From positions 18,719 to 82,718 of the forward strand of contig CAZMZT010000001.1 in NCBI GenBank assembly GCA_964571085.1: a stretch of DNA of 64,000 bases. The letters run 5' to 3'. A model generated the notes under the pieces. That model was not told where the DNA came from, did not search any database, and saw only the letters and a list, made by a program, of their open reading frames with translations. Every line of letters starts with the position of its first letter. The first letter of the stretch is position 1. Position numbers and translations under genes: made by a program. This stretch comes from an uncultured Candidatus Saccharibacteria bacterium. GTDB lineage: Bacteria > Patescibacteriota > Minisyncoccia > Phycocordibacterales > UBA9973. Below are positions 15,611 through 44,537 of the stretch, in pieces.

Positions 15611-18600
15611 ATGTGTTTTATGCTTGAAGCAAAAAAGCCAAAATCTTTATATCCTACAAAGAGAATTCTAAATAAAATTAGGAGCAAATTTTCTTTCCAC
15701 TATGTCGCCTATACGATACTTTTCGTAGTGGTTTCTTTTTCGATAATCAACATAGTTACAGCGACAACTCCAAACCCTGGACACCCATGGCTCGAGATCG
15801 GTGACGGTGCTTTCCAAGTAACTTATAACCAGACAGCAACTCGAACTTATACTTTCCCAGATGCGAGCACGACAGTGCTCACTACCAACGACCTCGTAAC
15901 TGTAGCTCAGGGAGGAACAGGTGTAGGATCATTCACTTCAAATGGAGTTCTCTATGGGAATGGAACAAGTGCATTGCAAGTCACTGCTGCTGGAACAACA
16001 GGTCAGTGTCTGATCGGAACAACTGGTTCAGCGCCGAGTTGGGGTTCATGTACGGGAAGTGGAATATCATGGAGTGCTTTAGTAAATCCAACAGGAGACC
16101 AAACACTTACTTTTGATGCTGGTGAAGAAAACATCTGGACTGTTGGTGCGACAACAGCAGATTTTTGGACCATGACAGCAAACTCTTTGACTACAGGTTC
16201 ACTATTTAGGTTGGTTGGTGATAGAGGAGAAGATTCAAGTTCAAAAGGTTTATTTGAATCTATTGCGACAGTGGATATGAGCGATGGAGGTGACGTTAAC
16301 AATGCTTATTTCGAAACAAACGTTAACAATACAACTGACCCAGGCAGTATAAAAGGAGTTTATTCGTTAGTTACAGACGATACCACTTTAGACAACTCTC
16401 TAAAAGGAGGTGGGTTTTATGTAAATGCAACCGGAGATGCTTCAAAAGATATTCTTGGTGTTGGAGCGGTTGCGCTAGCTTCTGCTGGAGTTGTAGCACC
16501 AGAGGTTGTCACAGGGCTTACTTCTTCAGCTATCTCTCTAGGAGCATTTACTAGTGGATTAGCAGAGCTTAACGGTGTAATAGGCTCCTCTGAACTATCA
16601 AGCTCTGATGGTGGAAACGCCAACCTTTATGGAGTAAAGGCTCAAACTAGTGTTACGCTCCCTACTGGAGGTACTATCAATCAATACGGCGTCTATGTAT
16701 ACAACGGATCTTCAAGCACAACTGGAACTTCTACAAAATATGGTCTTTATGTAGAAGACCAAACAGGGGCAGACACAAACTATAGCGCGATTTTTGCTGG
16801 AGGCAACGTCGGTATCGGTGACACATCACCAACAGCGCTATTTACTGTTGGTTCGGGCGATTTGTTCCAAGTAAACTCTTCAGGTGCCATAGCTGCAGCT
16901 ACAGGTATCACATCATCTGGCACTATCACTTTCTCAGGTCTCGGTACAAACTCTGCTGTTTATACAAACGGATCATCAGCACTCACTACCACTGCTCCAA
17001 CATCTGGAACTATTGGTTACTGGTCTCGCTCAGGTACAACTCTTTCTCCTGCAACTGCAAATGATCTAGTCTCTATATCTACAAACTCAACAACAGCAGA
17101 TAACAAAGCTCTACAAGTATCACAGACAGGTGCAACATCAGGTACTGACTATGCGGGGTATTTCGCAAACACAGGCGCAGCTACTACAAACATTAGTCTT
17201 TATTCATCTGCAACCGGAGCAACTGAAAATATCTCCGCTTTTTTTGAAAACGGTAGTGTTGGTATTGGTGGGTATGATTCAACAATTCCTTTGTATATAA
17301 ACTCTAGTTCTGCTAGCACTCTTTTGAAACTGTTTAAATCAACAGGAGATGCAGGTATCTCTTTTGGTGTAGAAGATCTCGCTACAGATATTGGTCGAAT
17401 TCAGGGTGAGTTTGATAACGGCCCAGCTGATCTTCTCTTGAACCCAGCAGGAGGTAATGTTGGTATTGGCACAACAGCACCTTCAGCTGCATTAGAGGTT
17501 GTAAAAACTACAGAACAACTAAGAGTTGGATACGACGAGACAAACTACTTCACTACAACTGTTGGTAGTTCAGTAAATGTAATGTATGAGTTAAGTCAGG
17601 CTTCAGGTAGTTGGTACTGGAGAAATGGTACAGGTGTTCAATCTTTATTTATAGGAGGTAATGGGGATGGTTTTGAATCATTATTTAGATCATCAGATGG
17701 AGATGCTCAATCAGGACTTTACCTAAGAGGTGATTTAGTAGGAACAAATGTTTCGTTTCTTCTTTCTGCTGATGATGATACTAATCCAAGTGTTTCAATT
17801 ACTGGAGATGCTCTCGCACAGACATTAACTTTTGATTCCGTAGACCATATATTTAATGGAAATGTTGGTATCGGAGATGCTACACCAGATGACCTTCTCA
17901 ACATTCACAGCGCAACTGCTTCAGCAGGTCTTGCGATCACTTCTTTGGGTACAGACACTGATCCGTATATCAAGTTTGAGCTTGCTGATGGTACCTCTTC
18001 TTTTATCATGGGAGTTGACGATTCAGATGCTGACAAGTTTAAAATCTCAACGACTGCACTTGGAACGAGTGACCGGTTTGTAATCGACTCCTCTGGAAAC
18101 GTGACGATCCCAGATCTTGGTGGAGGAGGAACCCTTTGTGTACAAACAGATAATAACGGAACACTCTCTACAACCACCTGTGGTGGTGGCGGAACATGGG
18201 ATACCATTGGCAACCCAGCAGCTGATCAAAATCTCACGTTTGATGCAGGTGAAGAAACTACTTGGACGATCAACGCAACAACTGCAACCAACTTTGCAAT
18301 GAATGCAAATGCTCTCACCTCAGGGACTATCCTTTCTCTTACCTCAAATGGCACCGGTGCGCTCACTGGGCAAAAAGGATTGAACATCTCCCTCTCTGGA
18401 GCAAACGGTACCGGTGCACAAACCACCTACGGTGCATATCTTTCAAATACAAAAACAGGAACATCAACAAATGTTGGGCTTTATGCTGAAGCAACAGGAG
18501 GATCAACTAATTATGCGGCACAGTTTAATGGGGATGTGAATTTTACGAATGTGGCGAATAGGACGATTAGTGTTGCTAATACAGCAGGTGCAGCTGGGAA

Positions 18601-21600
18601 AAATCTTACAATAAGAGCTGGGTCAAGTATCAGTGGTGGCTTTGCTGGAGGAGCATTAAATTTATATGCTGGAGACGGTTCTGCTGGTATCGGTGGAGCA
18701 GTTAATATTATTTCAGGAGCTAGTGATACCGGAGGAGATATAAATATTACCGCAGCAGGCGGAACTCCAGGTAGTGGTGATGGAGGGTCTGTCTATATAA
18801 ATCCAGGACCTAGTTCTGGTGGGTCAGCAGATGGCAATGTAATTATTGCAAATACAGATGGTAAAGTTTCTATCGGCTCCACCACCGCAACCTCCCTCTT
18901 CAACGTTGGTTCTTCTGCTCAATTTCAAGTAACTTCAGCTGGTGTTACCAGTATCACGCCTGGTCAATCAGCAACCGCTCTCACGGTGGCTCGCACCGGT
19001 ACCAACTACGCCTTCCAAGTTGATACCAACACCGCATCATCAGCAACAGGATTGAAGGTCACCTCTGCAGCAGCAGGAGGTGGTCTTGCACTCACCACCA
19101 TCTCATCAGGTACTGATGAAAACGTAACGTTTGATGCAAAAGGCGCAGGTACCATCTCTATCGGTGCATCATCAACCGGCAATGTCCTCCTTGCGGGAGG
19201 ATCAAGCGCAACAGGTTGTACGGTTGATAACTCAAACGGCAACCTCACCTGTTCAGGTACCATCTCTGGATCTGGTGCTGTTGGCTACTGGACACGTTCA
19301 GGAACGACGATCTCTCCTGCAACCGCAAACGACATCCTCTCCGTTTCAACGAACTCAACCACTGCAAGCAACAAAGCAATCGAAGGACTCCAAACTGGTG
19401 CAACCACCGGCACTGACTATGCTGGTTACTTCTCAAACACTGGTGCGGCGACTACCAACGTTGGTCTCTATGCTACAGCAACAGGTGCAACAAATAATTA
19501 TGCAGCTCAGTTTAATGGTCTAACTGATGTTCAGTCTTCTTCAGGCTCATATGGAAGTTATTTACTTCTCTCAAATAATAGCGCAGGAACAAAGGTTGCT
19601 CTTAACGCTACTGCATACAATGGAGTATTATATGTTACTACCTCAGCAGGAGCTGCTGGTTCATTTTTAGGCACTGCTCTCAATGATCCTAATAATGGAT
19701 CTTTTGGTTTCTTTAATAATTACACCACAGGTCAGGGAATTGTAGCAGGTATTGCTAATGGTGCAGCCCAGACAGCACTCATTGTTAATAATGTGAACAC
19801 ACTTTCTACTGCTGGCGATAAATTACTCGCACTAAAGAATAATAGTACTGAAAAGTTATCAGTTGATTTCAATGGCTCGATAACTTCTGCAACGCTTACT
19901 TCTGGTGGGACACAATGTCTCCAAGCAAATAGCTCTGGAGTTATATCTGGTACAGGCACTGCTTGTGGAACCGGTGGTTCTACAAACTGGGATACTATCG
20001 GTGACCCATCAGGAAACGGCTCTATCGCAATGGGCGCAACAGTGCAAACGATGGATTGGGCAACTGCGACTACACAAAACGCACTTTCACTTATTGGGAA
20101 CTCTTTGACTTCAGGAAAACTTTTCTCTCTTACCTCAACAGCAACTGCATTTACAGGCAACCTTGCTAATTTCACACTTTCAGGATCAAACGCCGCAAAC
20201 ACGGGCTCGCTTGTTCAGGTAGATAATACTGGAACTTCAAATGCAAATACTTCACTTCTCATCAACCACTATGCTACAGGTACAGGCAACCTAGCTTTTA
20301 GAGTGAACGATGTTTCAGGGGATACATCACCATTTGTAATAGATGGAAATGGAAATGTGGGTATAGGCCAAGCATCACCGAATACACAACTTCATATTGG
20401 TCCAGGTACAGACGTGTCTGATGTCGCATCTACCAACTTAGCTGTTTTTCAAAACAATGGGTCATCATCTATTTCAGTTAGAGATGCATCTAGTAATTCG
20501 GAAGGATATCTATATTCAGATGCAGGGGGAGTTAGCTTTGGTTCGGTGACTTCTCATGCTGTTCAGATTGGTGCGAGTGGAGGATCAGCCATCTTTATTG
20601 ATGTTAGTAATAATGTAAATATAGGAGGTGATACTACACCAAACTCTATCTTTACTGTAGGTGGAGCTTCCGAATTCCAAGTTGATATATCAGGAAACAC
20701 ATCTTTATTTGGTGGAGCAGATCTTCGTTTTATAGAAACAGGTGGAGGAACAGATTTTGTTGCATTTCAAGCTCCCGCATCTGTTGCTACAAGTGTGACT
20801 TGGACATTACCAAATGCTGATTCTTCAGGATGTCTCCAATCAAATGGATCTGGAACTCTTTCTATAGCAAGCTGTGGGGGAGGAGGTGTGGCATGGAGTG
20901 CTATAACAAACCCAACAGGAGACCTAAACCTGACTTTTGATGCAGGTGAAGAAACAGTCTTTACAACGAACGCAACTACTGCGACTGCGTTTTCAATAAC
21001 TTCCGCTACGCTTTCTTCGGGGACACTTCTTGATCTGACCGTTACTGGAACTGCTGGAATTTCAAGCCAGAAAGCTCTTAATATCTCAACGTCAGGAGCT
21101 GTAACAGGGTCCAACTCTACATATGGTGCGTATATTTCAAATACACATACAGGAGCAAGCGCTACAAGTGTTGGTTTGTATGCAACAGCTTCAGGAGGGC
21201 AAACTAACTACGCGGCTCAATTTGCAGGAGGTATTTTTCAGTCAGGAGGGTTTGCATCATTTAATATAGGCTCTAGTGTCTTTGGTGTAGCTTCAACCAC
21301 TTACCCTGACTATATTTTTACTATCAATGATGGGGTTATAGCTATAGGAGATTACAATGGTCCAGATCTAAATAATACATATCTTCTTGTTGATGATACC
21401 AATAGTGTTATCTCCGCAAATGCTTCTAGCGGTTTTGTCTTTGGGGGATCTAATTTTGAGCTTTATCCAACAACAACATCTGGAGATGGATTTTATGTTA
21501 GTGCAAATACCATAACAACAGGTAAGGGGATAACCGTACAGTCTTCTTCGCTTACCTCTGGTGCACTTATGGATCTCACTTCTACAGGTACCGGAGCTCT

Positions 21601-24600
21601 CACTGGACAGAAAGGTCTTAACATTTCACTCTCTGGTGCAAACGGTACAGGTGCACAAACTACCTACGGTGCTTATCTTTCAAACACAAAAACAGGTACG
21701 TCAAATAACGTTGGTTTATATGCGACAGCAAGTGGAGGAGCAAGCAATTATGCTATTGATGCAGGCAACGCAATCAGGCTTTCTTCTGCAACAGCAACAG
21801 AGTCACGTATATATAGTGCGACCGGAGTTGGATACTTTGGAGTATCAGAAACTACTGCACAAGCAAACATGTACTACAACAACAACTTTATAACGGTAGC
21901 TACTGGTTCTATCTCTTTGAATACTGGAGGTAATGAAAAAGTAAACATAGGAACTTCAGCCACTGTCATAAATGAGAACAGTCTTGACTATGATTTCCGC
22001 ATTGAAGGCGACACTGATGCAAACCTTTTCTTTACTGACGCTTCAACTGATCGAGTTGCCATAGGTACCAATACTCCACGCAATGCGTTTACTCTTGAGA
22101 ACAATGTTGGGGGTACTGCGATTGGAAGTGTAACAGCGACAGCTGGTGATCTTTCAACTGAGTGGAATAATATTTCACAATTTAAGATTCAAAATGACCG
22201 AGACTTAGGTGGAGGCAATGCGCTCGCATTCTTTGTTTCTGGAACAAGTAATGAAAGAAAGGCATTTATTCAGTCAGGACATTCAGATGGTACTAATGCA
22301 AACAACCTCGGAGATTTGATACTTAATCCATTTGGCGGGAATATTGGCATAGGAGGAGATCTTTCGCCTAATGCACTTTTCTCTGTAGGCTCAACTTCTC
22401 AATTCCAAGTCAACTCTTCCGGTGCTATAGCTGCAGCTACAGGCATCACATCATCTGGTACTATCACTTTCTCAGGTCTTGGAGGAGCAGGAACAAAATG
22501 TTTACAGACAGATAACTCTGGTGTGGTGACAGCGGCAGCATCTGCTTGTGGAAGTGGTGGTGGGCTCACTGTCGGTACAACAGCAATTACTAGTGGTGGT
22601 ACTAACCGTGTTTTATACGAGAACGGTTCAAACATTCTTTCTGAGAGTGCAGACTTTACTTACGACGGTACGACTCTAGGTGTAGCTACTTCTTCTACTA
22701 CTGCTTCAAACAAAGCTCTCAATATTGCACAAACTGGTGGAACAACAGGTACTGACTATGCTGGGTACTTCTCAAACACAGGTGCAGCAACAACAAACGT
22801 CGGTTTGTATGCTACTGCTTCTGGCGGAACTACAAATCTTGCACTCAATGTAGATGCAGGTCAGACACTTCTCGGAGGTACAACACTCAGCACTGGTACA
22901 CTTGCAAAGCTAAACATTGTTTCTACTATGTCTTCTAACGGATCTACTACTGCTATAGCTGGAATTCACGGAGACTATACATTTAACAACGGCGGTACTG
23001 CTAGCTTTGTACAAGTTGGCAACAGATTTGTATTCAACAATGCACCGACAACCAATGCAAACACTATGGTGGGTGAAGTTATAAGAACAGTAGACAATAC
23101 TGCACTTGCAAACTTGGTCCGGGGTATAGATATTACTTCTAATGCCGGCAGTAACACTGCGGGTACAAATACAGGACTACGTTCTACAGGAGGAACCTTT
23201 GGTGTTCAAGCTATAACAAATGGTTCTGCAGGAGGAGTGGCGTTGCCAGCAGGTCTCTATGCAGAGAACACTGGCACGACTCAAGGAGATGTCGCGAGGT
23301 TCTACACAGGTTCTATGACTTCAGCAGCATCGATGCTCAGTGTCTATCATGATACTTCTACATTTACCGGTGACGCTCTAGTTATGGATATGGCTGTTGG
23401 CTCTGGATCATTTACAGGGGATTTCCTTGATCTCAAGAATGCTGGAGTGCAAAAGTTTAAGGTTACATCAGCAGGTGTAGTAAGTATGGGTCTTTCCGGT
23501 ACAGCAAGTACAAATGCTATATGTTCAAGCCTCGCTAACACTACTGCACCAACAGCAGGTACAGCTTATGAGATTAGGGATTGTAACGCAGCTCCAGCTG
23601 CTGACTATGCTGAAATGTACCCAATGGAAACTGGTATGGAGTTTGGCGATATAGTTGCAACTGGTAGTGAGGTGGTCAATACATATGATACTACTGATGG
23701 AAACATCGACTGGACCAAGGTAAAAGGCAAGATCACTCGTATGATAAAAACTACACAAAGCTATCAACCTAATGTTATAGGTATAGTAGTTGATAACTAT
23801 GGTGACTTTACTTCTGCTGGACACAACATAAAAGAAGTAGATAACCCAATGCCAGTCGCACTCAACGGCCGTGTACCAGTAAAGGTAGCAAGTGATTCTG
23901 ATCCAATAATGCCAGGAGACTATATTACTACTTCAGGTAGTGAACCAGGTAAAGCACAAAAAGCTAAAAAATCAGGGCAGGTTATAGGAAAGGCTCTTGA
24001 AGCTTGGGAGCCAAACTCTGGAGCTCTGACTGTAATGGTCTATGTTGAACAAGGGTACTACAATGGAACATCTGTTAGTGAGTTTGCGGGGATTGATCCG
24101 ATGGCAAGCGACTTTGCCAAGCAAGTCCTGAGTCATTTTATGAACAACCAGTCTACTCAAGCAGGGTCAGAACTTATCCTCGACAGGCTAGCTGTGGGTG
24201 TAGAAATAATAACTCCGAAAGTTGTCGCCAATGAATTGGAAGTCAATACTATTAGTACAAGCACTAGTGGTGATATAGGTCTAGTGCTCGGGTCTGATGG
24301 TAAATTTATCGTAAGTTCTGGTGATACACAAAACACAAACCCAGCCATCACATTTGATGCCCTCGGTAATGCTACTTTCGCTGGTAAAGTTACAGCAGGT
24401 GAGATAGAAGTCAGCAACCTCGCAGGAATACAAAGTATAACAGACCAGATCAATCAGCTTTCCGAAGGTCAGGTCGCATTTACTCTGACATCGCAAGTGA
24501 TAAACACACTATCAAGCGCTCTTACTATCGCACAAGCTGATATTTCTAAACTAAACCAAGACTTAGAAGCTCTAGAATCCTCAGTCACAGGCTTGGTTGC

Positions 24601-25333: not shown

Positions 25334-25348
25334 AAATAATTTTAATAT

Positions 25349-26299
25349 ATGAAAGATAACGAAAAAAAACTAAATAAGAAAATTAAAAATCAAAAGTGGA
25401 TCATATGCTCTCTAGCGCTAGTGTTGATTGTCAGCGGAGTGTTTTCATTTAAGTACTTTAGTGCTGATTCAGACTTTAGATCAGACTTCCCACTACTGGA
25501 TCCTTCTCGTAAATTTATTCCAAGCGAGAACTACATTACCAACATTGAAGAGCTCAGAGGGTACCTGAGAGAACTAGGTAGTAAGTATCCTGACTCAGTC
25601 ACTGTGTACTACGAGAACATCAACTCAGGTTCTAACATCTCTATCAACAAAGATTTGCGATTGTTTCCTGCTTCACTGTCTAAACTCGTCCAAGCTATAC
25701 TCATAGTAAATAAAATTGAAAAAGGTAAGATGTCTTTTGATCAAGAGTTGAAAGCAGAGCCTGGTGATATTTCTTCTGATTCAGGAGATCTGTACAAAAC
25801 TATCGGCGACAAACCCATGACCGTAGAAAAACTTCTCGAAGAGTTGCTTGTGAACTCTGACAATACTGCACAAAATATTTTCAGACATCAGCTAAACTTC
25901 GAAGACTACCTAGACTTTCAAAACACTACAGGTCTGCAGGATTTGTATAATGATCAAGGTTTCATCTCAGCAAAAGAATACACTCGTATCCTCCGAGTAC
26001 TCTATACTTCTAACTTCTTGAAACCAGAGAATTCACAAAAGATTCTAGGCTACATGGCCAGCTCTGAGTTCAAAGATTACCTATCACAAGGTGTACCTAG
26101 TGATGTCGAGTTTGCTCACAAGTATGGAGAAAATATAGACTACAATATTTTTGCTGATTCAGGGATTGTATATGTTCCTGGCAAGCCTTATATGATATCT
26201 GTCATTATAAAGGGTAAGGACTCTACAAATGAGACCCGCAAATGGGCTACCAACCTCATGAAAGAAATCTCAGAACGTGCTTATAATATAAGCAAATAG
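25349..26299 (+). CDS. Membrane-anchored serine hydrolase with a class A beta-lactamase/PBP-like fold.
   Basis: An N-terminal TM helix is present, with 'SLSKL' (SxxK) and 'NSDN' (SDN) motifs. A KYG sits at the position of the usual KTG. Confidence 0.5.
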   Translation: MKDNEKKLNKKIKNQKWIICSLALVLIVSGVFSFKYFSADSDFRSDFPLLDPSRKFIPSENYITNIEELRGYLRELGSKYPDSVTVYYENINSGSNISINKDLRLFPASLSKLVQAILIVNKIEKGKMSFDQELKAEPGDISSDSGDLYKTIGDKPMTVEKLLEELLVNSDNTAQNIFRHQLNFEDYLDFQNTTGLQDLYNDQGFISAKEYTRILRVLYTSNFLKPENSQKILGYMASSEFKDYLSQGVPSDVEFAHKYGENIDYNIFADSGIVYVPGKPYMISVIIKGKDSTNETRKWATNLMKEISERAYNISK

Positions 26300-35516: not shown

Positions 35517-35530
35517 AGCTTAGTAACTCT

Positions 35531-36031
35531 ATGGAAGATAAAAACACAATTAAAATAAACGCTCTTCCTTATGTAGAGGAGCCTCCTACCGTTCCTGGGC
35601 TAAAACCTAAAAAGAGATCAATGTCCAAGCAAAAACTTATAAATAGGGTGTTGTTGGTAGTCTTGTTGATAGCGATAGGTTTCGGGGGGTATTTTTACTA
35701 TAGACTCAGCTCTCTACAAAAGAACCCTACAGCAGAAGCTTCCAAGGAAGCAAAAGACCTGCTCGGCAGGGTAGCAAAGATCTACCTTATCCCAACCGGA
35801 GAAGAGCCAACAGTAGCAACCGTCTCTGACCCAGAAAAGTTGAAAGACCAATCGTTCTTCTCTGGAGCACAAAAAGGAGACAAAGTACTTATATTTTCAC
35901 AGTCAGGCAAAGCCGTGCTATACAGACCTAGTATAAACAAGATCATTGAGGTTGCTCCTATAAATAATAAAAATGATAAACCAACAACACAAGAAAAATC
36001 AACAGGTCCTCTTCAAGACAAAACATTTTAA
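35531..36031 (+). CDS. Single-pass membrane protein (N-in) with a roughly 100-aa extracytoplasmic domain. It is the first gene of the surface cluster.
   Basis: A TM helix 'VLLVVLLIAIGFGGYFYY' follows a basic stretch. Confidence 0.5.
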   Translation: MEDKNTIKINALPYVEEPPTVPGLKPKKRSMSKQKLINRVLLVVLLIAIGFGGYFYYRLSSLQKNPTAEASKEAKDLLGRVAKIYLIPTGEEPTVATVSDPEKLKDQSFFSGAQKGDKVLIFSQSGKAVLYRPSINKIIEVAPINNKNDKPTTQEKSTGPLQDKTF

Positions 36032-37061
36032 TTGGATATTGGTTACAGTATTTGCCCTGTCTTCTTTTTATCCAATTTTCAACATATATGCGGCTCTTTC
36101 TTGTACTGTAACTACACAGGCATCATGTAATGGAAGTGGATATACCACACTTCTACGCATGTCTGGATCTACTAATGCTCACTCTGAACTCCCGAGTCAG
36201 TCCAATGTCAACTATGACGACGATGTAGTGTGTTGTTCTGGTGTTTCAACTATTGGTAACTCATGTAGTGCTTCTAACAAGCAAATATTTGCACGCATCT
36301 CAGGTTCGACAAATGGAACTATACAAGAGACAAGTGTAAACACTTACGGCACCAATGTCTGTTTGTCTGACTCTGTAGAGAACGACACTATCACTGTCGG
36401 TTATCAGAACTCCAACTGCTCTGGTTATGACACTACACTCGCTTCTATTTCTAGTTCAGACAATGCCCATGTAGGGGATGGCAGTGCATACACAAGGAAA
36501 ATCTGTGCGACGATAGTACAGCCAACTATAACTTTCGACCTCGACACTGCATCTGACTTTACAAATGGTGAGTCGACCGCTCCATACTTAGTTGAGCTTG
36601 GGGCTCTTTCTACTGGATCTGTAAATAATTCCAATGGGTCTAGCGTACGTATGATAGTAGCCGAAGGAGAAACCAATGCACCGGGTGGAATGGTAGTGAC
36701 TGTATATAATGCAGGTGGTGCTGATGGGCTACGGTCGGCATCGGTACCTACTGACAAGATTCCAAGCACTACAGGAACTATGTCTGCGGGTACAGCTCGA
36801 TACGGACTATGTGTTGCGACATCTGGACTTACAGGATTTTCTAGAGCAACAGGGTACAGTAGCGATTCTTGTTCACTAGGTTCTGGAACCAATGGTGTAA
36901 GGGCACTCTCATCAACTCCTACAGACATATTGAACTCAGGAGGTGGAACGCTGTCCGGTGGACATGCTGAAATAGTGGTCAATGCGACAATAAGCCCTAC
37001 AACTCCTTCTCATAATGACTATGAAGACTCACTTACATTCATTGCCACAGGGACTTTCTAG
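35973..37061 (+). CDS. Secreted beta-rich Ser/Thr/Gly-rich protein, paralog A. It is a candidate pilus/fibre subunit.
   Basis: A signal peptide is present. The C-terminal ~170 aa align with the 37182 product and both end in 'NDYxDxITFIATxTF'. The 5' end overlaps the upstream gene by 59 nt, so the true start may be downstream. Confidence 0.6.
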   Translation: MINQQHKKNQQVLFKTKHFNWILVTVFALSSFYPIFNIYAALSCTVTTQASCNGSGYTTLLRMSGSTNAHSELPSQSNVNYDDDVVCCSGVSTIGNSCSASNKQIFARISGSTNGTIQETSVNTYGTNVCLSDSVENDTITVGYQNSNCSGYDTTLASISSSDNAHVGDGSAYTRKICATIVQPTITFDLDTASDFTNGESTAPYLVELGALSTGSVNNSNGSSVRMIVAEGETNAPGGMVVTVYNAGGADGLRSASVPTDKIPSTTGTMSAGTARYGLCVATSGLTGFSRATGYSSDSCSLGSGTNGVRALSSTPTDILNSGGGTLSGGHAEIVVNATISPTTPSHNDYEDSLTFIATGTF

Positions 37062-37065
37062 TATC

Positions 37066-37079
37066 AAGTTATCCACAAT
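37066..37079. promoter_or_regulatory. Second copy of the 14-mer AAGTTATCCACAAT (DnaA-box consensus).
   Basis: It is an exact match to 15528..15541, 5 nt after a stop codon. Confidence 0.4.
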
Positions 37080-37148
37080 GCTTATTTACGTATCTTTTAA
37101 GGATATTTTATGGTAAAATAAGGCTATAAATCTTATTATAAAAGTTTA

Positions 37149-37168
37149 TTAATTATTAATTATTAATT
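37149..37168. repeat. Tandem TTAATTA x3 microsatellite in an AT-rich intergenic region.
   Basis: The sequence reads 'TTAATTATTAATTATTAATT'. Confidence 0.6.
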
Positions 37169-37181
37169 CAGTAGTTATATT

Positions 37182-38408
37182 ATGAAAATATTGAAATTCA
37201 AGTCATCAGTGCTGTCAAAGGTTGCAAGTTCTATTACTATGGTCGCCCTAATCCTTGTAACTTCAGGTGGCCCACAGATCGCAGAAGCTTTGGCTATCAC
37301 ATCATCAAAAGACACAGCTACTCGTCTACAGATCAGTACTACAGCTGACCATACTATAGTATTCACACTCCCGACTGGTATTGACTTTGATTCTGCTGGT
37401 AACACTGACTTCCTCCGTGTTGATTTTCCTGGTACTTTTACTGCTGGAGGCACTTGGGCTGCTGGAGACTTCACTTTCGATGATGGTGCTGCAAGAACTA
37501 TAAATGCTGTTGAACAAGGTGCTGGTGATGTAGACTGTACAGTCGCTGCCGGTGTAAACAACGTATGTATTTCTGTTGACACAACCAATAATATTTTCAC
37601 TATTAAACCATCAGCTACATATACAGCATCAGCAACAGGAGCAACTGTTACATTTACGATCGATGGAACAACTGCAGACGGTACACTCACAAATCCTTCT
37701 TCTGTAGCAGCTACAAACATAGATTTTCAACACTGTGACAACGTGGCTGCTTGTGACTCAGCGTTTGCTTCAACTCACTCAAGTCAGATAGCTTACGCTA
37801 TTATCGATGACGACACTGTAGCCATCACAGCAACGGTAGGCTCTTCAATTACTTTTGACCTAGACACAGCAGGAAGTAATGACAGTACATGCGATACAGA
37901 CGAGACAGCAGCACCATACGCTATAGCCCTCGGAGCAATATCAACGGCAGATACTAGAATATCTGGTGCTACAGATGCTGTAAACCTTATCTGTGTAGAC
38001 CTCGATACTAATGCTGGTGGTGGAGCAGTAGTCACAGTTTCAAACGCGAACGGAGCAAGTGGTCTGGTCTCTACTTCTAGTCCAACAAATGACATAGATA
38101 CTACCGATAACACTGCTGTTACTGCTGGTACTGAAAACTATGGTCTATGTATTGTTACAACTACAGCAGGTACTGGTACACTCGATGATGAAGGAGGATA
38201 TGATGGCGACACTTGTGCTGCCAATAGTGCGACTAATGTCGTACAAGCCATGTCTGCAGTCACTCCTGAGACTATCTTTGATACAAATGGTGCCCCTATA
38301 GCAGGCGGACGTGGAACAATAGCTGTAAATGCTTCAATTGCCACAGGTCAAGCGGCTCTCAATGACTATACTGACGCTATTACATTTATAGCGACTGCTA
38401 CATTCTAA
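37182..38408 (+). CDS. Secreted beta-rich protein, paralog B of the 35973 product.
   Basis: A signal peptide ending 'AEALA' is present. Shared blocks include 'ITFDLDTA...APY...LGA(L/I)ST', 'GG.VVTV.NA.GA.GL' and 'YGLC' plus the C-terminal 'ITFIATATF'. Confidence 0.6.
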   Translation: MKILKFKSSVLSKVASSITMVALILVTSGGPQIAEALAITSSKDTATRLQISTTADHTIVFTLPTGIDFDSAGNTDFLRVDFPGTFTAGGTWAAGDFTFDDGAARTINAVEQGAGDVDCTVAAGVNNVCISVDTTNNIFTIKPSATYTASATGATVTFTIDGTTADGTLTNPSSVAATNIDFQHCDNVAACDSAFASTHSSQIAYAIIDDDTVAITATVGSSITFDLDTAGSNDSTCDTDETAAPYAIALGAISTADTRISGATDAVNLICVDLDTNAGGGAVVTVSNANGASGLVSTSSPTNDIDTTDNTAVTAGTENYGLCIVTTTAGTGTLDDEGGYDGDTCAANSATNVVQAMSAVTPETIFDTNGAPIAGGRGTIAVNASIATGQAALNDYTDAITFIATATF

Positions 38409-38429
38409 TAGTAAGAAGACTTCTAAGGG

Positions 38430-39455
38430 ATGAATAACTACCAGAACAACAGAGGACGATTCGCACTCTTGATTTTAATCATTGCTGTTTTCTTTGTTTC
38501 GAAAAATGCTCATGCTCTCAGCTTGTCTCCTGTACGTGTAGAAGTCAGTGGTAACCCAGGCGAGACAGTCACCAGGGAGATGGTCATCACCAATGAGAGT
38601 GAAGGTAGCTCAATATACTACTCTTCATATGCCAACTTCGAAGCCTCAGGTGATACCGGTAGTCCAGCATTCGTAGAGCCAAAAGATGATATAGGTACAT
38701 GGCTCTCTACAACTGCATCTATAGACTTGAAAGCCAATGAGTCAAAGACCGTTACATTCAAAATAGAGATTCCTAAAGATGCAGAACCAGGAGGACACTT
38801 CGGATCAATATTCTGGGGTACAAATCCAAACAATGGCTCAAGCGGGGTGGCTGTAGGTTCAAAGACAGGTATACTCATACTTCTTTCAGTTAATGGTGAT
38901 GTAAAAGAAGCTGGAGGCCTCGTCGACTTTAATACCAAAGACAACAAAATCTTTTACAACACTCTCCCGGTGTCTTTTACTTATAGGTTTCGTAACGATG
39001 GAGGTGACCGTATAAAACCAGTAGGCAAGATAGTAATGCATGATCTGTTTTATATACCAGAAGATAAAATAGATGCAAACCCAGGTGGAGGCAACATACT
39101 TCCATCAAGCACTCGACGCTTCAACGTTGACTGGGTCAAGGATCCACGAGCGAAGGACTATGTAGCACCAAGTGGTGTAGTAGGTAAGTTCTTTGGCCAA
39201 GCAATATACCAGTGGAACAACTACGCCTTTGGCCCATATTTTGCCAAGCTCAACCTGCTGTACAGTACAGATGCTATAAGAGTAAAAGACACAGTTTTCT
39301 TCTTTGTTTTTCCTTGGCAATTATTAATATGCCTTGCCATTATTTTCTTCACTGTATTTTGGGGCGGCAAAAAACTAATTCGACGCTATAACAAGCATAT
39401 TATACAGAAGGCACGTCTTGGCATGAACAAACCAAACGATGCCACTCATGTATAG
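38430..39455 (+). CDS. Secreted Ig/chaperone-like beta-domain protein with a C-terminal TM anchor and basic tail.
   Basis: A signal peptide is present. 'LSLSPVRVEVSGNPGETVTREMVITNESEGS' resembles PapD-like or DUF916-like Ig-fold openings. The C-terminus has a TM 'LLICLAIIFFTVFW' plus 'KKLIRRYNKH'. Confidence 0.5.
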   Translation: MNNYQNNRGRFALLILIIAVFFVSKNAHALSLSPVRVEVSGNPGETVTREMVITNESEGSSIYYSSYANFEASGDTGSPAFVEPKDDIGTWLSTTASIDLKANESKTVTFKIEIPKDAEPGGHFGSIFWGTNPNNGSSGVAVGSKTGILILLSVNGDVKEAGGLVDFNTKDNKIFYNTLPVSFTYRFRNDGGDRIKPVGKIVMHDLFYIPEDKIDANPGGGNILPSSTRRFNVDWVKDPRAKDYVAPSGVVGKFFGQAIYQWNNYAFGPYFAKLNLLYSTDAIRVKDTVFFFVFPWQLLICLAIIFFTVFWGGKKLIRRYNKHIIQKARLGMNKPNDATHV

Positions 39456-40305
39456 AAAATCTCTAACTAAATTCATATTACTCGTCTTGTTCTTTTTTGC
39501 TGTATCGCATACAGTTTACGCTGTGGATGTGGGGGTATCTGCTTCTGTGGGTACCATAACTATTACTCCGACTGATGATGGTGGAGGAGGGATAGACACA
39601 AGTGTTGTATTCTCTGGACTTGCTTATCCTGGCGCCACTGTCCATATATGGAAAGACGGAATTCCTTCACAGGTGGTTATGGCAGATGCAAATGCTCGCT
39701 TTAGTGTTACGCTTTCTGAAACATATAACCCAAGTGTACTGTATACTCTATATGCCATAGATAAGTCTGGGCGTAGATCACTACTTATCAACTATCCTCT
39801 GGTGGTTAAAAACGGCTATGTGACCCAAGTAAGTGGTATCAGATTTGCCCCAACTATCACTACAGATAAAAGTGAGGTAAAATTTGGCGACTATATAACA
39901 GTATCTGGCTACTCTGTACCAAACACATATATAGACGTCGTTATATCAGGATCAGTAAGTTCGACTTACTATGTCCAAAGCAAACCTGACGGAGTTTATC
40001 AGATTACAATACCACTTATAGGTTTTAAAAAGGGTGCATACGATGTATATTCTAATTACCAAAATGATAAGAAGATAAGTAAAGTCATAAAGTTTGTTAT
40101 TGGAGATGTAAATATATTGAGCATCGACCTCACTACAAATATCCCAGGAGATTGTAATGCCGACCAGATTATAAATCTTGTCGATTTCTCTGTGGTTGCC
40201 TTTTGGTATGGGAAGCCAAATCCACCAAAGTGTGTCGACACAAATTCTGACAAAGTCATAAACCTTACCGACTTCTCAATACTCGCATTTTATTGGACTG
40301 GGTAA
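39439..40305 (+). CDS. Secreted protein with two Ig-like repeats and a C-terminal dockerin domain.
   Basis: Two calcium-binding loop repeats, 'DCNADQIINLVD' and 'DTNSDKVINLTD', fit D-x-N-x-D-x-x-x-N-x-x-D. Each is followed by a hydrophobic helix ('FSVVAFWYG' / 'FSILAFYWTG'). Confidence 0.6.
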   Translation: MPLMYRKSLTKFILLVLFFFAVSHTVYAVDVGVSASVGTITITPTDDGGGGIDTSVVFSGLAYPGATVHIWKDGIPSQVVMADANARFSVTLSETYNPSVLYTLYAIDKSGRRSLLINYPLVVKNGYVTQVSGIRFAPTITTDKSEVKFGDYITVSGYSVPNTYIDVVISGSVSSTYYVQSKPDGVYQITIPLIGFKKGAYDVYSNYQNDKKISKVIKFVIGDVNILSIDLTTNIPGDCNADQIINLVDFSVVAFWYGKPNPPKCVDTNSDKVINLTDFSILAFYWTG

Positions 40306-40325
40306 TGTATAATGTTTATATAACT

Positions 40326-41201
40326 ATGAAGATACTTATCTACACTATAGCCATTTTCTTACTAACCTCATCTGTGTCTCATGCAGCTCTGGTGTCTGTA
40401 TCTGCACCAAAGGTTGCTACAGAAGGACAGGATTTTAGTGTTTTGGTTAATCTTAATACAGAAGGCGCATCTGTGAACTCTTTTGATATAAAGTTATCGT
40501 ACCCTGTAGATGTAGTTTCATTCTCTGGCTACAAAGAAGAAGGATCCATCAAGCGCCTATGGCTAACATCACCAGTAGACAAAGGTGGGGAAATACACTT
40601 TAGTGGGATTATACCTGGTGGGGTAGATGGGATGTATGATCCTGATAAAAAAGAACTACAACCAATACCTCTTTTGCATTTATTATTTTCTACAAGAGAC
40701 GTAGGTCAAGGAAGCTTTACTATAAAAGAATCAAGTATTCTTATTAACGATGGTAAAGGTACATCACTAATCCACACTAGAATTGATTCACCTATAAGTG
40801 TATCTAAATCACTAGATTCATCTTATGATAAGAATTCCACTCGCATTAAATCAGCAGACACAGTGCCACCCCTGCCTTTTGTTATAGAATTCATAGAAGC
40901 AGGTCTATTCTCGAGGACACCGTCTATGATTGTCTTTTCTACTACAGACGCAGAATCAGGCGTGAAATCTTATCAACTTCGCGTAGCAGGTGATAATTGG
41001 GAAGATATATCAAGTCCAACACCTATAAGTAAGGGCCTTGTAAAAAGGGACGTAGTAGTTAGGGCGGTAGACTTCGGAGGCAATATACGTGAGTCAAATG
41101 TAGAAATACCTGGTATACTTTCTAATATACAGCTTATAGGGATAGTACTTATAGGTTTTGTTTGTTACTTTGTATTTTTTGTGTTAAAAAGGAAAAGATG
41201 A
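40326..41201 (+). CDS. Membrane-anchored protein with an N-terminal cohesin-like domain.
   Basis: A signal peptide is present. 'ALVSVSAPKVATEGQDFSVLVNLNTEGASVNSFDIKLSYPVDVVSFSG' matches the cohesin pattern V.V.....G..F.V.V.......V...D..L.Y...V. The C-terminus has a TM 'LIGIVLIGFVCYFVFFVL' plus KRKR. Confidence 0.55.
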   Translation: MKILIYTIAIFLLTSSVSHAALVSVSAPKVATEGQDFSVLVNLNTEGASVNSFDIKLSYPVDVVSFSGYKEEGSIKRLWLTSPVDKGGEIHFSGIIPGGVDGMYDPDKKELQPIPLLHLLFSTRDVGQGSFTIKESSILINDGKGTSLIHTRIDSPISVSKSLDSSYDKNSTRIKSADTVPPLPFVIEFIEAGLFSRTPSMIVFSTTDAESGVKSYQLRVAGDNWEDISSPTPISKGLVKRDVVVRAVDFGGNIRESNVEIPGILSNIQLIGIVLIGFVCYFVFFVLKRKR

Positions 41202-42313
41202 AATTCTACATAAAAACAATACTATATAGTTTTTTTATAGTCGTATTGTTTAGCACTACGAGTGTGTTTGCAGCACCTGCATCACTGTCCATAACTAAAC
41301 CATCTGGTAGTGTACAAGAAGGAGATCGGGTCACACTAAGTATTAAAGTAGAGTCTACTGACCAAGCTATCAATGCCATATCTGGAGTTGTATCATTCTC
41401 TGAAGATACTCTAAAGACTATATCTGTAAGTAGGGATAGTAGCATATTAAACATCTGGACCCGGGATCCTAATGTAGGTAGGAATAAGGTCACATTTGAA
41501 GGTGTAATACTCAACCCTGGTTATAGGGGAGCTGGTGGGACACTTTTCAATATTACATTTGAAGCCAAGAAATCTGGTCGAGCTACTGTTTCTTTTACTG
41601 AAGGAGCAATCCTTGCCAATGACGGACTTGGTACTAATGTCATAAGTGGACTTTCATCTATCAATTTTAATATTACTCCAGGTGCTGGGGCTCTAGACTT
41701 GTCTGGGGTGCCTATCGCCCAAACAACACCAAGGAGACTACAAGCATTGCCGGTCATTACTGAGTATTCACAATCAGTTTATTCTAAACAAACTGCTTAT
41801 CTAAGGGGTAGAGGAGAGCCAGGCGCTATGACAAAAATTTCCTTTGAAGATCTATCGCAGAAATCTTTCGGAGAACAATTCTTGGACTTTGTTCAATCAA
41901 AAAAGAAACGCCTTAGTGATGTCCTTGTCCAAAACAATGAAAAAGGTTTATTTGAATATGTCACACCCAACAACCTAATAGCAGGGGTATACAACGCCAC
42001 CCCATTCCTAGTTGAAGATGATACAAACATAGAAAAGCCTGGTCTCGGTGTTCAGCTTTTTGTAAATGACAGCAAGATAGTCAAAGGCTTGATAGTCTTT
42101 ATAAATATACTCCTCCTACTTATACCAATAGTTGGGCTTATAATGCTTATTTACTTTATCCCGTGGTATTCGTCACGCCGTATGCGTATTATGAAGAGAC
42201 GCATGGGTCTCGAAGAAGAGAAGATTATACTCACCGAGCATCATTTGGAGCATGAAGATAAGCTCTTATATAAAGACCCGCTAGAAAACACAAATACTGA
42301 AAAAAGCAGTTAG
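41198..42313 (+). CDS. Second membrane-anchored cohesin-like protein.
   Basis: Its ATG overlaps the upstream stop as ATGA. 'ASLSITKPSGSVQEGDRVTLSIKVESTDQAINAISGVVSFSEDTLKTISV' is cohesin-like. A C-terminal TM and a basic 'SSRRMRIMKRR' stretch are present. Confidence 0.55.
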   Translation: MKFYIKTILYSFFIVVLFSTTSVFAAPASLSITKPSGSVQEGDRVTLSIKVESTDQAINAISGVVSFSEDTLKTISVSRDSSILNIWTRDPNVGRNKVTFEGVILNPGYRGAGGTLFNITFEAKKSGRATVSFTEGAILANDGLGTNVISGLSSINFNITPGAGALDLSGVPIAQTTPRRLQALPVITEYSQSVYSKQTAYLRGRGEPGAMTKISFEDLSQKSFGEQFLDFVQSKKKRLSDVLVQNNEKGLFEYVTPNNLIAGVYNATPFLVEDDTNIEKPGLGVQLFVNDSKIVKGLIVFINILLLLIPIVGLIMLIYFIPWYSSRRMRIMKRRMGLEEEKIILTEHHLEHEDKLLYKDPLENTNTEKSS

Positions 42314-42332
42314 GTGTGGTATTATATAGGGT

Positions 42333-43412
42333 ATGAAGCGACCATATATCCTGCTGACCTCTCTATACCTTATTGCCATACTTAGTTTCCCTCTTTTAGG
42401 TAATGCTGAGAGTAAAATACTTAACCTAGAAGAGAATTTGTGGCTCAGATCTCGCAACAACACCATTGTCGTCTATCCTGAAAAGAATTTCCCCCCATAT
42501 TCTTATCAAAACTCTTCAGGAATACCACAGGGTCTGTCCATAGACTATATCGAAGTGATAGCTCAGAAAATAGGAGCAAAGATCCAGTATTTACCTGCTC
42601 GTTCTCGATCTCAAATACTTGATGATGTAAAACAAAGCAGTAAAGGAGATGTGATTACATCTTTAGCTGACACAAAAGATAGGGGAGATATACTGTATTT
42701 CTCAGATACTTATGTCACTACTCCAGCTGTTATTGTTGTAAGAAAAGATTCGAATAAGAACAATCTAACCCTCAACGACCTGACTGGTAAAAAGGTCGCT
42801 ATTGGTGGTCAATATGCAGTTGAGGAATTCGTGAGAACTAATAATCCTAGGATTGTCATTGAGTCCGTCAGCGACAACGAACTTGGTTTACAGCAAGTAG
42901 TTCTAGGCGAGGTGGATGCTGCTATTATGGATATTACATCTCTGTCTTATTACTTATCCAAACAAGTTTTAAATAGTGTTAAGGTTGTTGGTAGCACTGG
43001 TTTTGACTACAAACTCTCGTTTGCTGTACCAAAAGACAAGCAGATACTCCAATCAATCCTCGATAAAGGATTACAACAAATAAGCACTAATGATAGGCAA
43101 ATAATCAAAGATAAATGGGTAGTCGTACCAAACGAAATAAACAAAACTTCATTAATCTCCTCCTATATTTTAGACAATCTAATATCTATAATCTTGTATC
43201 TGATACTTTGTGTCATAATAGTTATCCTCATTATACGACTAAGGAAGAGGAGATTTACATTTAGAAGGCATAGTCATCTAGATGAGGTAAAAGAATTGAA
43301 AGAAGAGATGCTCGAACTGGAAGACACCAGTAAAGGCCTGATAGAAGAGCTAAATAACGTTAAAATCTTGGAGGAAGACATAAAAGAAAAAATAAAGAAG
43401 ATAGAAAATTAG
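42333..43412 (+). CDS. Membrane-anchored SBP_bac_3 (periplasmic-binding-protein type 3) domain protein with a short cytoplasmic coiled-coil tail.
   Basis: A signal peptide, an SBP fold ('LTGKKVAIGGQYAVEEF...EVDAAIMD'), a TM 'IILYLILCVIIVILII' and a tail 'ELKEEMLELEDTSKGLIEELNNVKILEEDIKEKIKKIEN' are present. Confidence 0.65.
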   Translation: MKRPYILLTSLYLIAILSFPLLGNAESKILNLEENLWLRSRNNTIVVYPEKNFPPYSYQNSSGIPQGLSIDYIEVIAQKIGAKIQYLPARSRSQILDDVKQSSKGDVITSLADTKDRGDILYFSDTYVTTPAVIVVRKDSNKNNLTLNDLTGKKVAIGGQYAVEEFVRTNNPRIVIESVSDNELGLQQVVLGEVDAAIMDITSLSYYLSKQVLNSVKVVGSTGFDYKLSFAVPKDKQILQSILDKGLQQISTNDRQIIKDKWVVVPNEINKTSLISSYILDNLISIILYLILCVIIVILIIRLRKRRFTFRRHSHLDEVKELKEEMLELEDTSKGLIEELNNVKILEEDIKEKIKKIEN

Positions 43413-43463
43413 CCAAATCTAGAACTTCCTTTTTGAGGCCACTTTTGTTATTATTAAGGGATA

Positions 43464-44537
43464 ATGAAATCAGCTTTCCTATACGTATTCTTGGCAGTAT
43501 TTGTCATAAGTCCTATATCTACTATATACGCCCAGTCTAGTTTACTTACTAAAGAAGAAAACATATGGCTTAGCTCAAGGAATAACACCATCTCTGTTTT
43601 ACCAGAGAAGAACAACCCACCATTTTCTTTTAATGATTCTTCTTATATAACCCAGGGTATTTTCATTGATTATATTAAACTTGTAGCAGAGAAGTTGGAC
43701 TTAAAGATAGATTATATTACTGCTCGTACAAGATCTGATGTTTTAAAAAGTCTAACATCATCTGAAGGTGATTATGTATCAAGTATAGAAGTTGATAAGG
43801 CCAAGGAACTATCTCTTGATTTTAGCGATCCCTACTCTACATTTCCTGTAGTTATAGCTGTTCGTAAAGATTACTCATCTCATGATGGTATGACTCTCGA
43901 TGAGTTTAACAACAAAAGTGTTGCCGTAATACAAGGCTCTGCTATCAGTTCATATATCAAAAGCAATTACCCACGTGTGATAGTCGAAGAAGTCGTAGAC
44001 AACGAACTTGCCCTACAGAAAGTAGCTCTCGATGAAGTGGATGCTACAGTTATGAATGTTGCGTCTCTGACTCATCTACTGTCTAAGCAATCAATGCGTA
44101 GTATTAAAGTTGCAGGGAGTATAACATTTGATTTAAAGATGGCATTTGCAGTCCCAGAAGGGAAGGCAATACTCAGCTCTATTTTAAACAAAGGATTAAA
44201 CCAAGTAAGCGCGAGAGAGCATCAAGATATCATAGATAAATGGATATTGTTGCCAAATGAGAAGCATACAGCTAATTCATTTTTCTCAGGCATAGCTCAT
44301 CATCCAGGCCTTACTATAGTCATTGTTATTTTAGTAATTATTGTATCTACAGTATTGATATTTATAAGACGAAAAATGCCACACATACATAATCACAATA
44401 AAGGAGTAGGAACAAATATGATCAGTGAGCTAGAGCAAGAGATCATAGAACTTGAGCATACAAGCAAAGGTTTAATAGAGGAACTCAATGAAGTCAAAGC
44501 TTTAGAGCAAGACATCAAAGATAAACTAAAGAATTAA
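43464..44537 (+). CDS. Tandem paralog of the SBP_bac_3 membrane-anchored protein.
   Basis: It shows roughly 45% identity along its whole length to the 42333 product, including the coiled-coil tail 'ELEHTSKGLIEELNEVKALEQDIKDKLKN'. Confidence 0.65.
   Translation: MKSAFLYVFLAVFVISPISTIYAQSSLLTKEENIWLSSRNNTISVLPEKNNPPFSFNDSSYITQGIFIDYIKLVAEKLDLKIDYITARTRSDVLKSLTSSEGDYVSSIEVDKAKELSLDFSDPYSTFPVVIAVRKDYSSHDGMTLDEFNNKSVAVIQGSAISSYIKSNYPRVIVEEVVDNELALQKVALDEVDATVMNVASLTHLLSKQSMRSIKVAGSITFDLKMAFAVPEGKAILSSILNKGLNQVSAREHQDIIDKWILLPNEKHTANSFFSGIAHHPGLTIVIVILVIIVSTVLIFIRRKMPHIHNHNKGVGTNMISELEQEIIELEHTSKGLIEELNEVKALEQDIKDKLKN

Follow-up and report, generated by a model that had tools for sequence, protein, structure and literature searches.

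The 64-kb stretch of DNA analysed here (contig CAZMZT010000001.1, positions 18,719 to 82,718; hereafter the window) carries at positions 15611-44537 a block of twelve consecutive plus-strand open reading frames (ORFs), g1 to g12, that spans 28.9 kb and makes up 45% of the window, as described in the initial annotation of this DNA. With a confidence slightly above even, we interpret this block as a vertically inherited surface locus of Paceibacteria, the core of which, g4 to g10, is a non-covalent display module organised around g7, a distant member of the DUF916/WxLIP family. The gene order is preserved in at least 80 species of Paceibacteria (Patescibacteria), and no description of this cluster was found in the literature on Patescibacteria and the candidate phyla radiation. 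Among uncultured bacteria the Paceibacteria (Parcubacteria) belong to the most abundant, and they are thought to be attached to other cells; the locus is a concrete, widely conserved and testable candidate for how they attach. In the candidate design, a display platform that stays constant is paired with giant adhesins that are hypervariable.

The products of the block are secreted or anchored throughout, in agreement with the initial annotation: a hydrophobic segment was present within the first ~60-80 residues of 12/12 block products compared to 4/25 of the other genes of the window (Fisher p ~1e-6). A C-terminal transmembrane (TM) helix is additionally found on g7 and g9-g12, and g4 has an N-terminal TM helix only. 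Housekeeping genes across 9.8-47.7 kb are likewise on the plus strand, so that the strand bias is uninformative for the block. From g6 to g11 the coding regions overlap or nearly abut, with intergenic gaps of -17 to 21 nt, which suggests co-transcription. The core genes are the following.

g4, 35531..36031, plus strand: 166-aa bitopic membrane protein, N-terminus inside, TM helix at residues 34-59, external domain of ~105 aa
g5, 35973..37061, plus strand: secreted protein, Cys-rich variable head (residues 42-177) and shared C-terminal domain, the C-domain (residues 178-362; nt 36504-37058)
g6, 37182..38408, plus strand: secreted protein, N6 head and C-domain (residues 215-408; nt 37824-38405), ending in ...TFIATATF-COOH
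g7, 38430..39455, plus strand: DUF916/WxLIP-family protein with signal peptide, two Ig-like domains, PW motif, C-terminal TM helix and conserved basic cytoplasmic tail
g8, 39439..40305, plus strand: secreted Ig-domain protein with a C-terminal type-I-like dockerin (residues 236-288; nt 40144-40302)
g9, 40305..41201, plus strand: signal peptide, cohesin-like domain, Ig-like domain and C-terminal TM anchor
g10, 41198..42313, plus strand: signal peptide, cohesin domain, spacer and C-terminal TM anchor

Gene order in related genomes

A scan with one genome per species gave 171 stretches with relatives of g7; 80 loci were fetched, together with 3 from long contigs, and the homologs were named as Paceibacteria, Nomurabacteria, Parcubacteria RAAC4_OD1_1 and Minisyncoccia. 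Homologs were co-located and not scattered, a point on which the initial annotation had made its proposal depend: g4, g5/g6 and g7-g10 were found in the same order and on the same strand in about 80 species. The shared order, seen in 81 loci from about 80 Paceibacteria species, is a giant adhesin, g4, one to four C-domain proteins, g7, g8, g9 and g10, often followed by an anchored solute-binding protein (SBP) and often located between pheT and gyrB. From g4 through the C-domain genes to g10 all genes lie on one strand, and their order is held down to 44% identity of g7 and also where neither pheT nor gyrB was found adjoining, for example in L007, L009 and L024 (loci are given by such numbers). 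Because the block is often bracketed by pheT and gyrB, the locus is considered to be vertically inherited.

In 77/77 loci the gene that directly precedes g7 encodes a C-domain protein, and 60 loci have exactly two such genes. Downstream, g8 is the next gene in at least 67/78 loci, g9 in at least 61/74 and g10 in at least 54/70, these adjacency counts being lower bounds limited by the picking of ORFs. On the upstream side, g4 directly precedes the C-domain genes in 40/65 loci, and a giant protein stands beyond g4 in most of the loci reaching that far; these giants fall into three or more unrelated groups (g1-like, g3-like and others). An SBP homologous to g11 follows g10 in 32/65 loci, g12 is confined to the closest relatives, and the g1-g2 pair recurs in four loci (L025, L070, L078 and L087). 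The best conserved protein is g7, with 44-72% identity versus 23-68% for g8-g10, and the topologies are consistent over 75-82 homologs of each gene. Among 1.84 billion representatives, the g7 profile matched 9086 clusters (50% identity) at E<=1e-3; of these, 947 reached E<=1e-30.

g7, a distant member of the DUF916/WxLIP family

With 341 aa, g7 is within the length range of WxLIP proteins (337-365 aa). In its AlphaFold2 model (pLDDT 85) a signal peptide is followed by two beta-sandwich domains, and a long helix that includes the TM segment lies at the C-terminal end. The best matches in a Foldseek search against the PDB were the WxLIP of E. faecium, 9i25_C (E 1.1e-11) and 9i1y_A (E 1.6e-11), the title of entry 9i25 describing WxLIP 'bound to long WxL'; next came the fibril form of Vpr (8jmw), RbmA and then the chaperone-usher chaperones CfaA and CsuC. 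The first description of g7 as an Ig/chaperone-like anchored protein is thus borne out by the model and by the chaperone matches. In tblastn searches against plasmids, g7 matched genes for a 'DUF916 domain-containing protein' in Streptomyces, Cellulosimicrobium and Clavibacter (E 5e-5 to 3e-4), with weaker matches in Deinococcus and Paenibacillus. The hhalign comparison of the g7 family with six DUF916 plasmid proteins gave 99.4% probability and E 1.2e-21 over 278 columns, in an alignment that takes in both domains, the PW motif and the TM helix; with two Paenibacillus proteins alone, the neighbours of which are PF13731 WxL proteins, it gave E 1.4e-6. On the grounds of these Foldseek, tblastn and hhalign matches, g7 is assigned to the DUF916/WxLIP family as a distant member. 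The Pfam model WxLIP_PGBD reached just 21.9 bits, below its gathering score of 27.3, in 33/69 members of the g7 family, and WxLIP_HBD gave no match in this family.

Two residues are invariant in the g7 family, Arg36 near the mature N-terminus and Lys196. Two further conserved elements, residues 66-86 and a hairpin at residues 121-154, are of low confidence in the model. The cytoplasmic tail following the TM helix (residues 319-341; window 39384-39452), with the motif RYN[RKN][FYH]IIx[KR]A, is among the two most conserved stretches of the protein.

Relatives of g7 on plasmids were found in other surroundings. The Deinococcus sp. D7000 plasmid (L098, 5939-11541) encodes a 300-aa g7/DUF916-like protein without TM helix beside hypothetical proteins of 291, 189 and 1018 aa; this layout recalls a chaperone-usher operon and hints that DUF916/WxLIP proteins and PapD-like chaperones are related. 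The present finding also points tentatively to a link between WxLIP/DUF916 proteins and chaperone-usher chaperones. In plasmids of Streptomyces, Cellulosimicrobium and Clavibacter (L093-L095), actinobacterial DUF916 genes are located among genes of secreted GH43, LamG and RICIN proteins, and in Streptomyces the RICIN protein has a WxL-like domain at its C-terminal end (..DFRGGTSGWSLTG.. ..GDYAGTLTLTLL). Since actinobacterial plasmids carry both DUF916 genes and a WxL-like domain, the DUF916 system is wider than the Firmicutes of the literature. With the present locus the WxLIP/DUF916 system, until now seen as a speciality of gut Firmicutes, reaches a distant phylum and acquires a new partner domain.

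A common C-terminal domain in g5, g6 and giant proteins

In iterative searches with hidden Markov models (HMMs), the last ~185 residues of g5 and of g6 proved to belong to a single superfamily, the C-domain, which has 176 members in the fetched loci. The end of the C-domain is the C-terminus of the protein in 175/176 members, and its final strand is conserved: ...AGxYxTxLT[YF]xxTGx[FY]. The paralogy of g5 and g6, already recognised in the initial annotation, extends over their C-terminal halves with 42% identity over 233 residues (E 8e-38). The C-domain is also carried by 9 giants of 2000-2600 residues and by 5 mid-size proteins. The gene adjoining g7 is nearly always of the g6 type (N6-C class), and the gene before it has a variable head, which is of the g5 type (Cys-rich, ~140 aa) in 22 loci, of another type in 41 and giant in 9; the smallest of these heads, in g5, has 140 residues, and the largest, in other species, are PATR adhesins exceeding 2000 residues. 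The g5 head (window 36096-36503) contains 10 Cys and three [LF]xR[MI]SGSTN[AG]H... repeats, with no match in Pfam or among PDB sequences, and its lectin-like nature is only a suspicion.

In the g6 model, computed for the monomer alone, both domains fold confidently and no disordered N-terminal extension is seen. The earlier label of g5 and g6 as pilus-like subunits is unproven: g6 matches Ig/pilin-like folds of a generic kind, and the window was found to contain no usher, sortase or assembly enzyme. A candidate N-terminal His-brace/YcnI-like copper site in g6 was rejected, the mature N-terminus not being His.

By sequence, the C-domain is also not recognisable as a WxL domain. The Pfam WxL model PF13731 gave no match in 79 g6-type members (E<=1) or in 22 others (E<=10), and the C-domains of g5 and g6 contain no Trp and no Trp-x-Leu motif. 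No match was obtained with the C-domain profile against PDB sequences or with the C-domain consensus in tblastn against plasmids, and hmmsearch with HMMs built on real WxL sequences gave no significant C-domain match. With hhalign, the alignment to real WxL sequences was sub-significant (P 0.003-0.13, unrelated controls ~0.7) and limited to the last ~45 columns, in register; an attempt to deepen the WxL profile yielded just 7 close Paenibacillus homologs. The Paenibacillus PF13731 proteins have GYTL in place of the first WxL and end in ...AGTYKSVFTYTATSGI, similar to ...AGxYxTxLTYVATGNF, the C-terminal motif that is the only WxL-like part of the C-domain. Because of this resemblance, a remote relationship between the C-domain and WxL, as judged from sequence, is plausible but unproven.

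Giant proteins and their association with the core

Upstream of the core, the block encodes two giant proteins separated by a hydrolase.

g1, 15611..25333, plus strand: 3240-aa fibre-like giant with an N-terminal TM/signal-anchor at residues 27-54
g2, 25349..26299, plus strand: membrane-anchored serine hydrolase of class-A beta-lactamase/penicillin-binding protein fold, N-terminal TM helix at residues 14-39
g3, 26489..35461, plus strand: 2990-aa secreted PATR beta-helix adhesin with signal peptide and no autotransporter barrel
g3 C-terminal tail, 35342..35458, plus strand: poly-Gly, D-I-G-F-I-Y and ~25 aromatic-rich residues, candidate sorting/anchoring signal

The tail of g3 was found to recur: poly-Gly, D-[ILS]-G-F and a final ~25 aromatic-rich residues are present on giants of different families in 14 further loci (L011, L016, L020, L028-L030, L051-L054, L057, L081, L083 and L088), with a g4 homolog as the next gene in 14/14, followed, again in 14/14, by two small C-domain genes. 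No NCBIfam sorting-signal model matched the g3 tail, and the poly-Gly and D[ILS]GF tail may be a new C-terminal sorting or anchoring signal. The small TM protein g4 was correctly named as such before, and 46/46 of its homologs have the N-terminal TM helix only. Where the giant ends in a C-domain, g4 is present in 0/8 loci, usually with one small C-domain gene only. The two arrangements, a giant fused to the C-domain without g4 or a poly-Gly-tailed giant with g4, are thus mutually exclusive, which suggests that g4 and/or the g5 head may stand in for the covalent fusion of giant and C-domain. The fusions in 9 loci, together with the strict co-occurrence of g4 and poly-Gly tail, indicate that the giants are functionally tied to the core.

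The PATR nature of g3 was confirmed with Pfam and NCBIfam (PATR E 9.6e-35, autotransporter repeat E 6e-44), the protein carrying 9-14 PATR/autotransporter beta-strand repeats, and in at least 10 loci the gene directly before g4 encodes a g3-like giant. Close to its C-terminus (residues 2872-2948; window 35102-35335), two GGSGYxxxPTVxF repeats match PHROG 460 'head closure Hc2' (E 7e-11), which shows a repeat in common with phage proteins and is no sign of a prophage. For g1, the N-terminal anchor and the internal repetition were confirmed, with super-repeats of 700-900 residues and a Pro/Glu/Thr-rich C-terminal tail, and the 'tail-fibre repeat' was rejected, no family match being obtained in Pfam, NCBIfam or PHROGs; for the last 680 aa, no related sequence was found in the PDB. 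The HMM check called for in the initial annotation was passed by the PATR, cohesin and dockerin assignments (the last below threshold in Pfam) and failed by the tail-fibre repeat. Many related loci have a giant similar to g1 upstream of the cluster, and in several of them a g2 homolog comes next. The beta-lactamase fold proposed for g2 is supported by Pfam Beta-lactamase2 (E 1.7e-36) and by the motifs SxxK (SLSK), SDN and KYG, a variant of KTG, that are read in its sequence.

Cohesin-dockerin trio and solute-binding proteins

The dockerin of g8 matches the solved dockerin 2y3n_B (E 2.9e-4) and carries the calcium-binding loops DCNADQIINLVDF and DTNSDKVINLTDF, both conserved in 72/77 homologs, in support of the earlier assignment; in Pfam, Dockerin_1 gave E 5e-4 and 20.6 bits, slightly under the gathering score of 22.9, and Big_6 gave E 8e-5, just below its gathering score. 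The two anchored cohesins that had been predicted were both recovered. Pfam Cohesin (PF00963) matched g10 above the gathering score (E 1.1e-5, 26.1 bits versus 24.1) as well as 5/6 of its homologs, with up to 60.8 bits, and the C-terminal TM helix is present in 73/75. The domain of g9, a paralog of g10, was recognised by hhalign against the cohesin domain of g10 (99.9%, E 1e-35); among g9 homologs, Pfam Cohesin matched 2/4, one of them above the gathering score, and the C-terminal TM helix was found in 75/75. The start of g9 follows the gene call in L001.

Two anchored SBP-fold proteins, as previously stated, close the block.

g11, 42333..43412, plus strand: binding protein (SBP_bac_3) anchored by a C-terminal TM helix, short coiled coil in the cytoplasm
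g12, 43464..44537, plus strand: g11 paralog of the same architecture, SBP_bac_3 E 7e-18

For g11, SBP_bac_3 gave E 8e-21, with weak matches to amino-acid SBP and EvgS sensor-domain models. The G+C content is 0.36-0.38 over g9-g12 (window 40000-44000) versus 0.42-0.47 over g1-g8.

Comparison with known surface systems

The closest known system is the WxL/Csc cluster of Lactobacillales and Bacillales. A published WxL cluster consists of one WxLIP with a small and a large WxL protein, the shared domain being always C-terminal, and the large WxL proteins bear adhesin heads, beta-helices included (PMC10599100, PMC9772566). The present locus has the same organisation. Its g7 is similar to WxLIP (DUF916-DUF3324-TM) in size, architecture, fold and sequence; adjacent genes code for small and for large or variable-head secreted proteins with a common C-terminal domain of ~185 residues, a C-domain gene standing beside g7 in each of the 77 loci, with varying heads and 9 giants; the large versions have beta-helical adhesin heads; signal peptides are present throughout; and a non-covalent attachment is proposed in both cases. 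It differs in that its shared domain is not the Pfam WxL domain and lacks Trp-x-Leu motifs, so that two or more adjacent proteins with a C-terminal PF13731 domain, as in WxL clusters, are not seen among the C-domain proteins, and in that no LPXTG protein or sortase is present. It also has the additional conserved g4, a dockerin protein and two cohesin anchors, its giants may be separate and poly-Gly-tailed, its host belongs to the Patescibacteria, and it occupies a fixed, apparently core chromosomal locus in contrast to a variable multi-copy island. The known part is accordingly the WxLIP-homologous keystone and the grammar of the WxL cluster; new are the different or unrecognisably diverged partner domain, the cohesin-dockerin trio, g4, the split or fused giants, the phylum and the core chromosomal position.

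The two-Ig-domain fold of g7 also matches the chaperones CfaA, CsuC, FimC and SafB of chaperone-usher pili, and as in these pili the Ig-like domain of the partners ends in a conserved C-terminal strand and an adhesin head is combined with a C-terminal subunit domain. Patescibacteria are generally held to lack an outer membrane, and no outer-membrane usher (PF00577) was found in the window; unlike PapD-like chaperones, which g7 resembles in fold only, g7 is anchored by a TM helix, and no sign of N-terminal donor extensions or of polymerisation was seen. The anchored cohesins g9 and g10 and the duplicated calcium-loop, type I-like dockerin of g8 are similar to cohesin-dockerin systems, both cellulosomes and the non-cellulosomal pairs of bacteria and archaea. 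Unlike in cellulosomes, enzymes and carbohydrate-binding modules (CBMs) are absent here, the anchor is a C-terminal TM helix in place of S-layer homology domains or a sortase, the single dockerin protein has Ig domains only, and the trio lies inside a WxLIP-type cluster. With its PATR repeats and a predicted long beta-helix, g3 is like the passengers of PATR autotransporter adhesins (type Va/Vb); it differs by the lack of a C-terminal translocator barrel or TpsB partner and ends in the poly-Gly tail, or in relatives in a C-domain. A type V autotransporter was rejected for g3, since only the PATR repeats are present, with no barrel and a Gly-rich C-terminus. Sortase pili were also rejected, an LPXTG-like motif being present in 0/12 block proteins with no sortase in the window. 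The jelly-roll subunit (Peptidase_M73, PF12389) and SipW-type peptidase of TasA and archaeal bundling pili were not found.

Proposed mechanism and alternative explanations

From the architecture, homology and synteny observed here we infer, by analogy, contacts among the proteins of the display module. As in the E. faecium complex of WxLIP with long WxL (PDB 9i25), the membrane-anchored g7 would bind both C-domains, that of g5 and that of g6, and keep them on the outer side of membrane or wall, a g7 hairpin or loop (residues 66-86 or 121-154) probably inserting into the C-domain beta-sandwich. In other species g7 would hold the giants themselves by their C-domains, and the variable heads and giant adhesins would point outward. 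The separate polypeptide g3, with its poly-Gly and DIGF tail, might be tethered by g4, possibly with the g5 head, and g8 would dock on g9 or g10 through the cohesin-dockerin pair to give a second tether or brace. The role of the module is likely attachment to a host cell or substrate. As for the single undescribed organelle put forward in the initial annotation, the conserved unit is real and, as said above, no description from Patescibacteria was found, but a relative exists in the WxL/Csc system, and the organelle as such is suggested by synteny only. The conserved neighbours g1, g2, g11 and g12 may plausibly participate and are the weakest part of the single-organelle reading.

Several points weigh against the display module. 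A conserved cytoplasmic tail such as that of g7 is not accounted for by a passive holder role, co-occurrence is the sole ground for a tether of g3 by g4 or g5, and the peptidoglycan binding proposed for WxL is not assumable for this module. The conserved order, moreover, may result in part from a conserved chromosomal neighbourhood (pheT ... gyrB) and not from function. Taken further, this last point becomes an explanation of its own, in which independent surface proteins occupy a tolerated 'parking lot' between pheST and gyrB and the true units are only g5-g6-g7 and, separately, g8-g9-g10. The presence of pheT upstream and gyrB downstream in many loci, by which the synteny is in part plain vertical inheritance, fits this explanation, as do the unrelated kinds of upstream giants, the SBP in just about half of the loci with g12 in close relatives only, the G+C drop over g9-g12 and the uninformative promoter and terminator scans, with counts at chance level. 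We nevertheless consider it quite improbable, as the order from g4 through two C-domain genes to g10 persists to the lowest g7 identity and also away from pheT and gyrB, the packing of g6-g11 suggests co-transcription, and the C-domain fusions and the g4/poly-Gly association link the giants to the core.

A donor-strand fibre would give g7 a different task, that of an anchored PapD-like chaperone, with g5 and g6 as pilin-like subunits polymerising by strand exchange to a short stalk or pilus, without usher, in a monoderm cell and with the C-domain giants as FimH-type tip adhesins, composed of a head and a C-terminal pilin domain. In chaperone-usher pilins a conserved C-terminal strand is anchored by the chaperone via its carboxylate, and the always terminal C-domain, ending in the conserved strand ...AGxYxTxLTYxxTGxF-COOH, resembles this end; the invariant Arg36 and Lys196 of g7, its chaperone-like fold and the Deinococcus plasmid homolog without TM helix, encoded among pilin-sized proteins and a 1018-aa protein, would also fit. 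Such a fibre is unlikely in our view, because the window has no polymerase of any kind, usher and sortase included, and the g6 monomer model is confident without a disordered N-terminal extension. The usual two subunit genes with different heads, furthermore, agree better with a heterodimeric platform than with a homopolymer, and WxLIP, the closest solved relative, is found in a stable partner complex, and the 9i25 title makes no mention of a transient chaperone. A wider version, a lineage-wide, usher-less strand-complementation organelle for attachment, of a type not seen before, in which a g7-like protein assembles a C-domain stalk bearing the giants, with a cohesin-dockerin brace and a poly-Gly and DxGF signal read by g4, appears to us decidedly doubtful; if it were true, WxL clusters, DUF916 proteins and chaperone-usher chaperones would form one ancient superfamily across monoderms and diderms. 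The module might also serve nutrient capture in place of host attachment, holding polymer- or ligand-binding proteins, including the SBPs g11 and g12, by which an auxotrophic cell scavenges. Carbohydrate utilisation was proposed for the Csc clusters of Lactobacillus by Siezen et al. (PMC1534035), which is a precedent, and both the two anchored SBP_bac_3 proteins after the cluster and the company of carbohydrate-active proteins that cohesin-dockerin pairs and DUF916 genes keep elsewhere (GH43, LamG and RICIN in the actinobacterial plasmids) point in this direction. But no glycoside hydrolase, CBM or transporter permease is found in or next to the block, g8 has Ig-like domains only beside its dockerin, the heads are PATR beta-helices and fibres typical of adhesins, and half of the loci have no SBP, so that we regard nutrient capture as very improbable. 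No hydrolase besides g2 and no transporter were found in the block itself. We retain the display module as our preferred reading.

Flanking genes and minor observations

The immediate flanks of the block are housekeeping genes, pheS and pheT upstream and gyrB, CNNM and thrS downstream, with pur genes, rnc, smc, RNase R, trmD and rpoB farther out in the window. A tandem repeat search detected none, and no tRNA gene was found across the whole 64 kb. Three genes downstream of the block are noted here. A single 314-aa ORF at 49929-50873 unites NusB with a NUDIX hydrolase domain, and the same fusion is present in L009 and L011; the SMC-type protein at 51561-53819 has just 752 aa, far below the canonical length of bacterial SMC; and the minus-strand gene at 53825-55459 codes for a 544-aa protein that joins PGA_cap (CapA-like, capsule synthesis) and VanY D-Ala-D-Ala carboxypeptidase domains.

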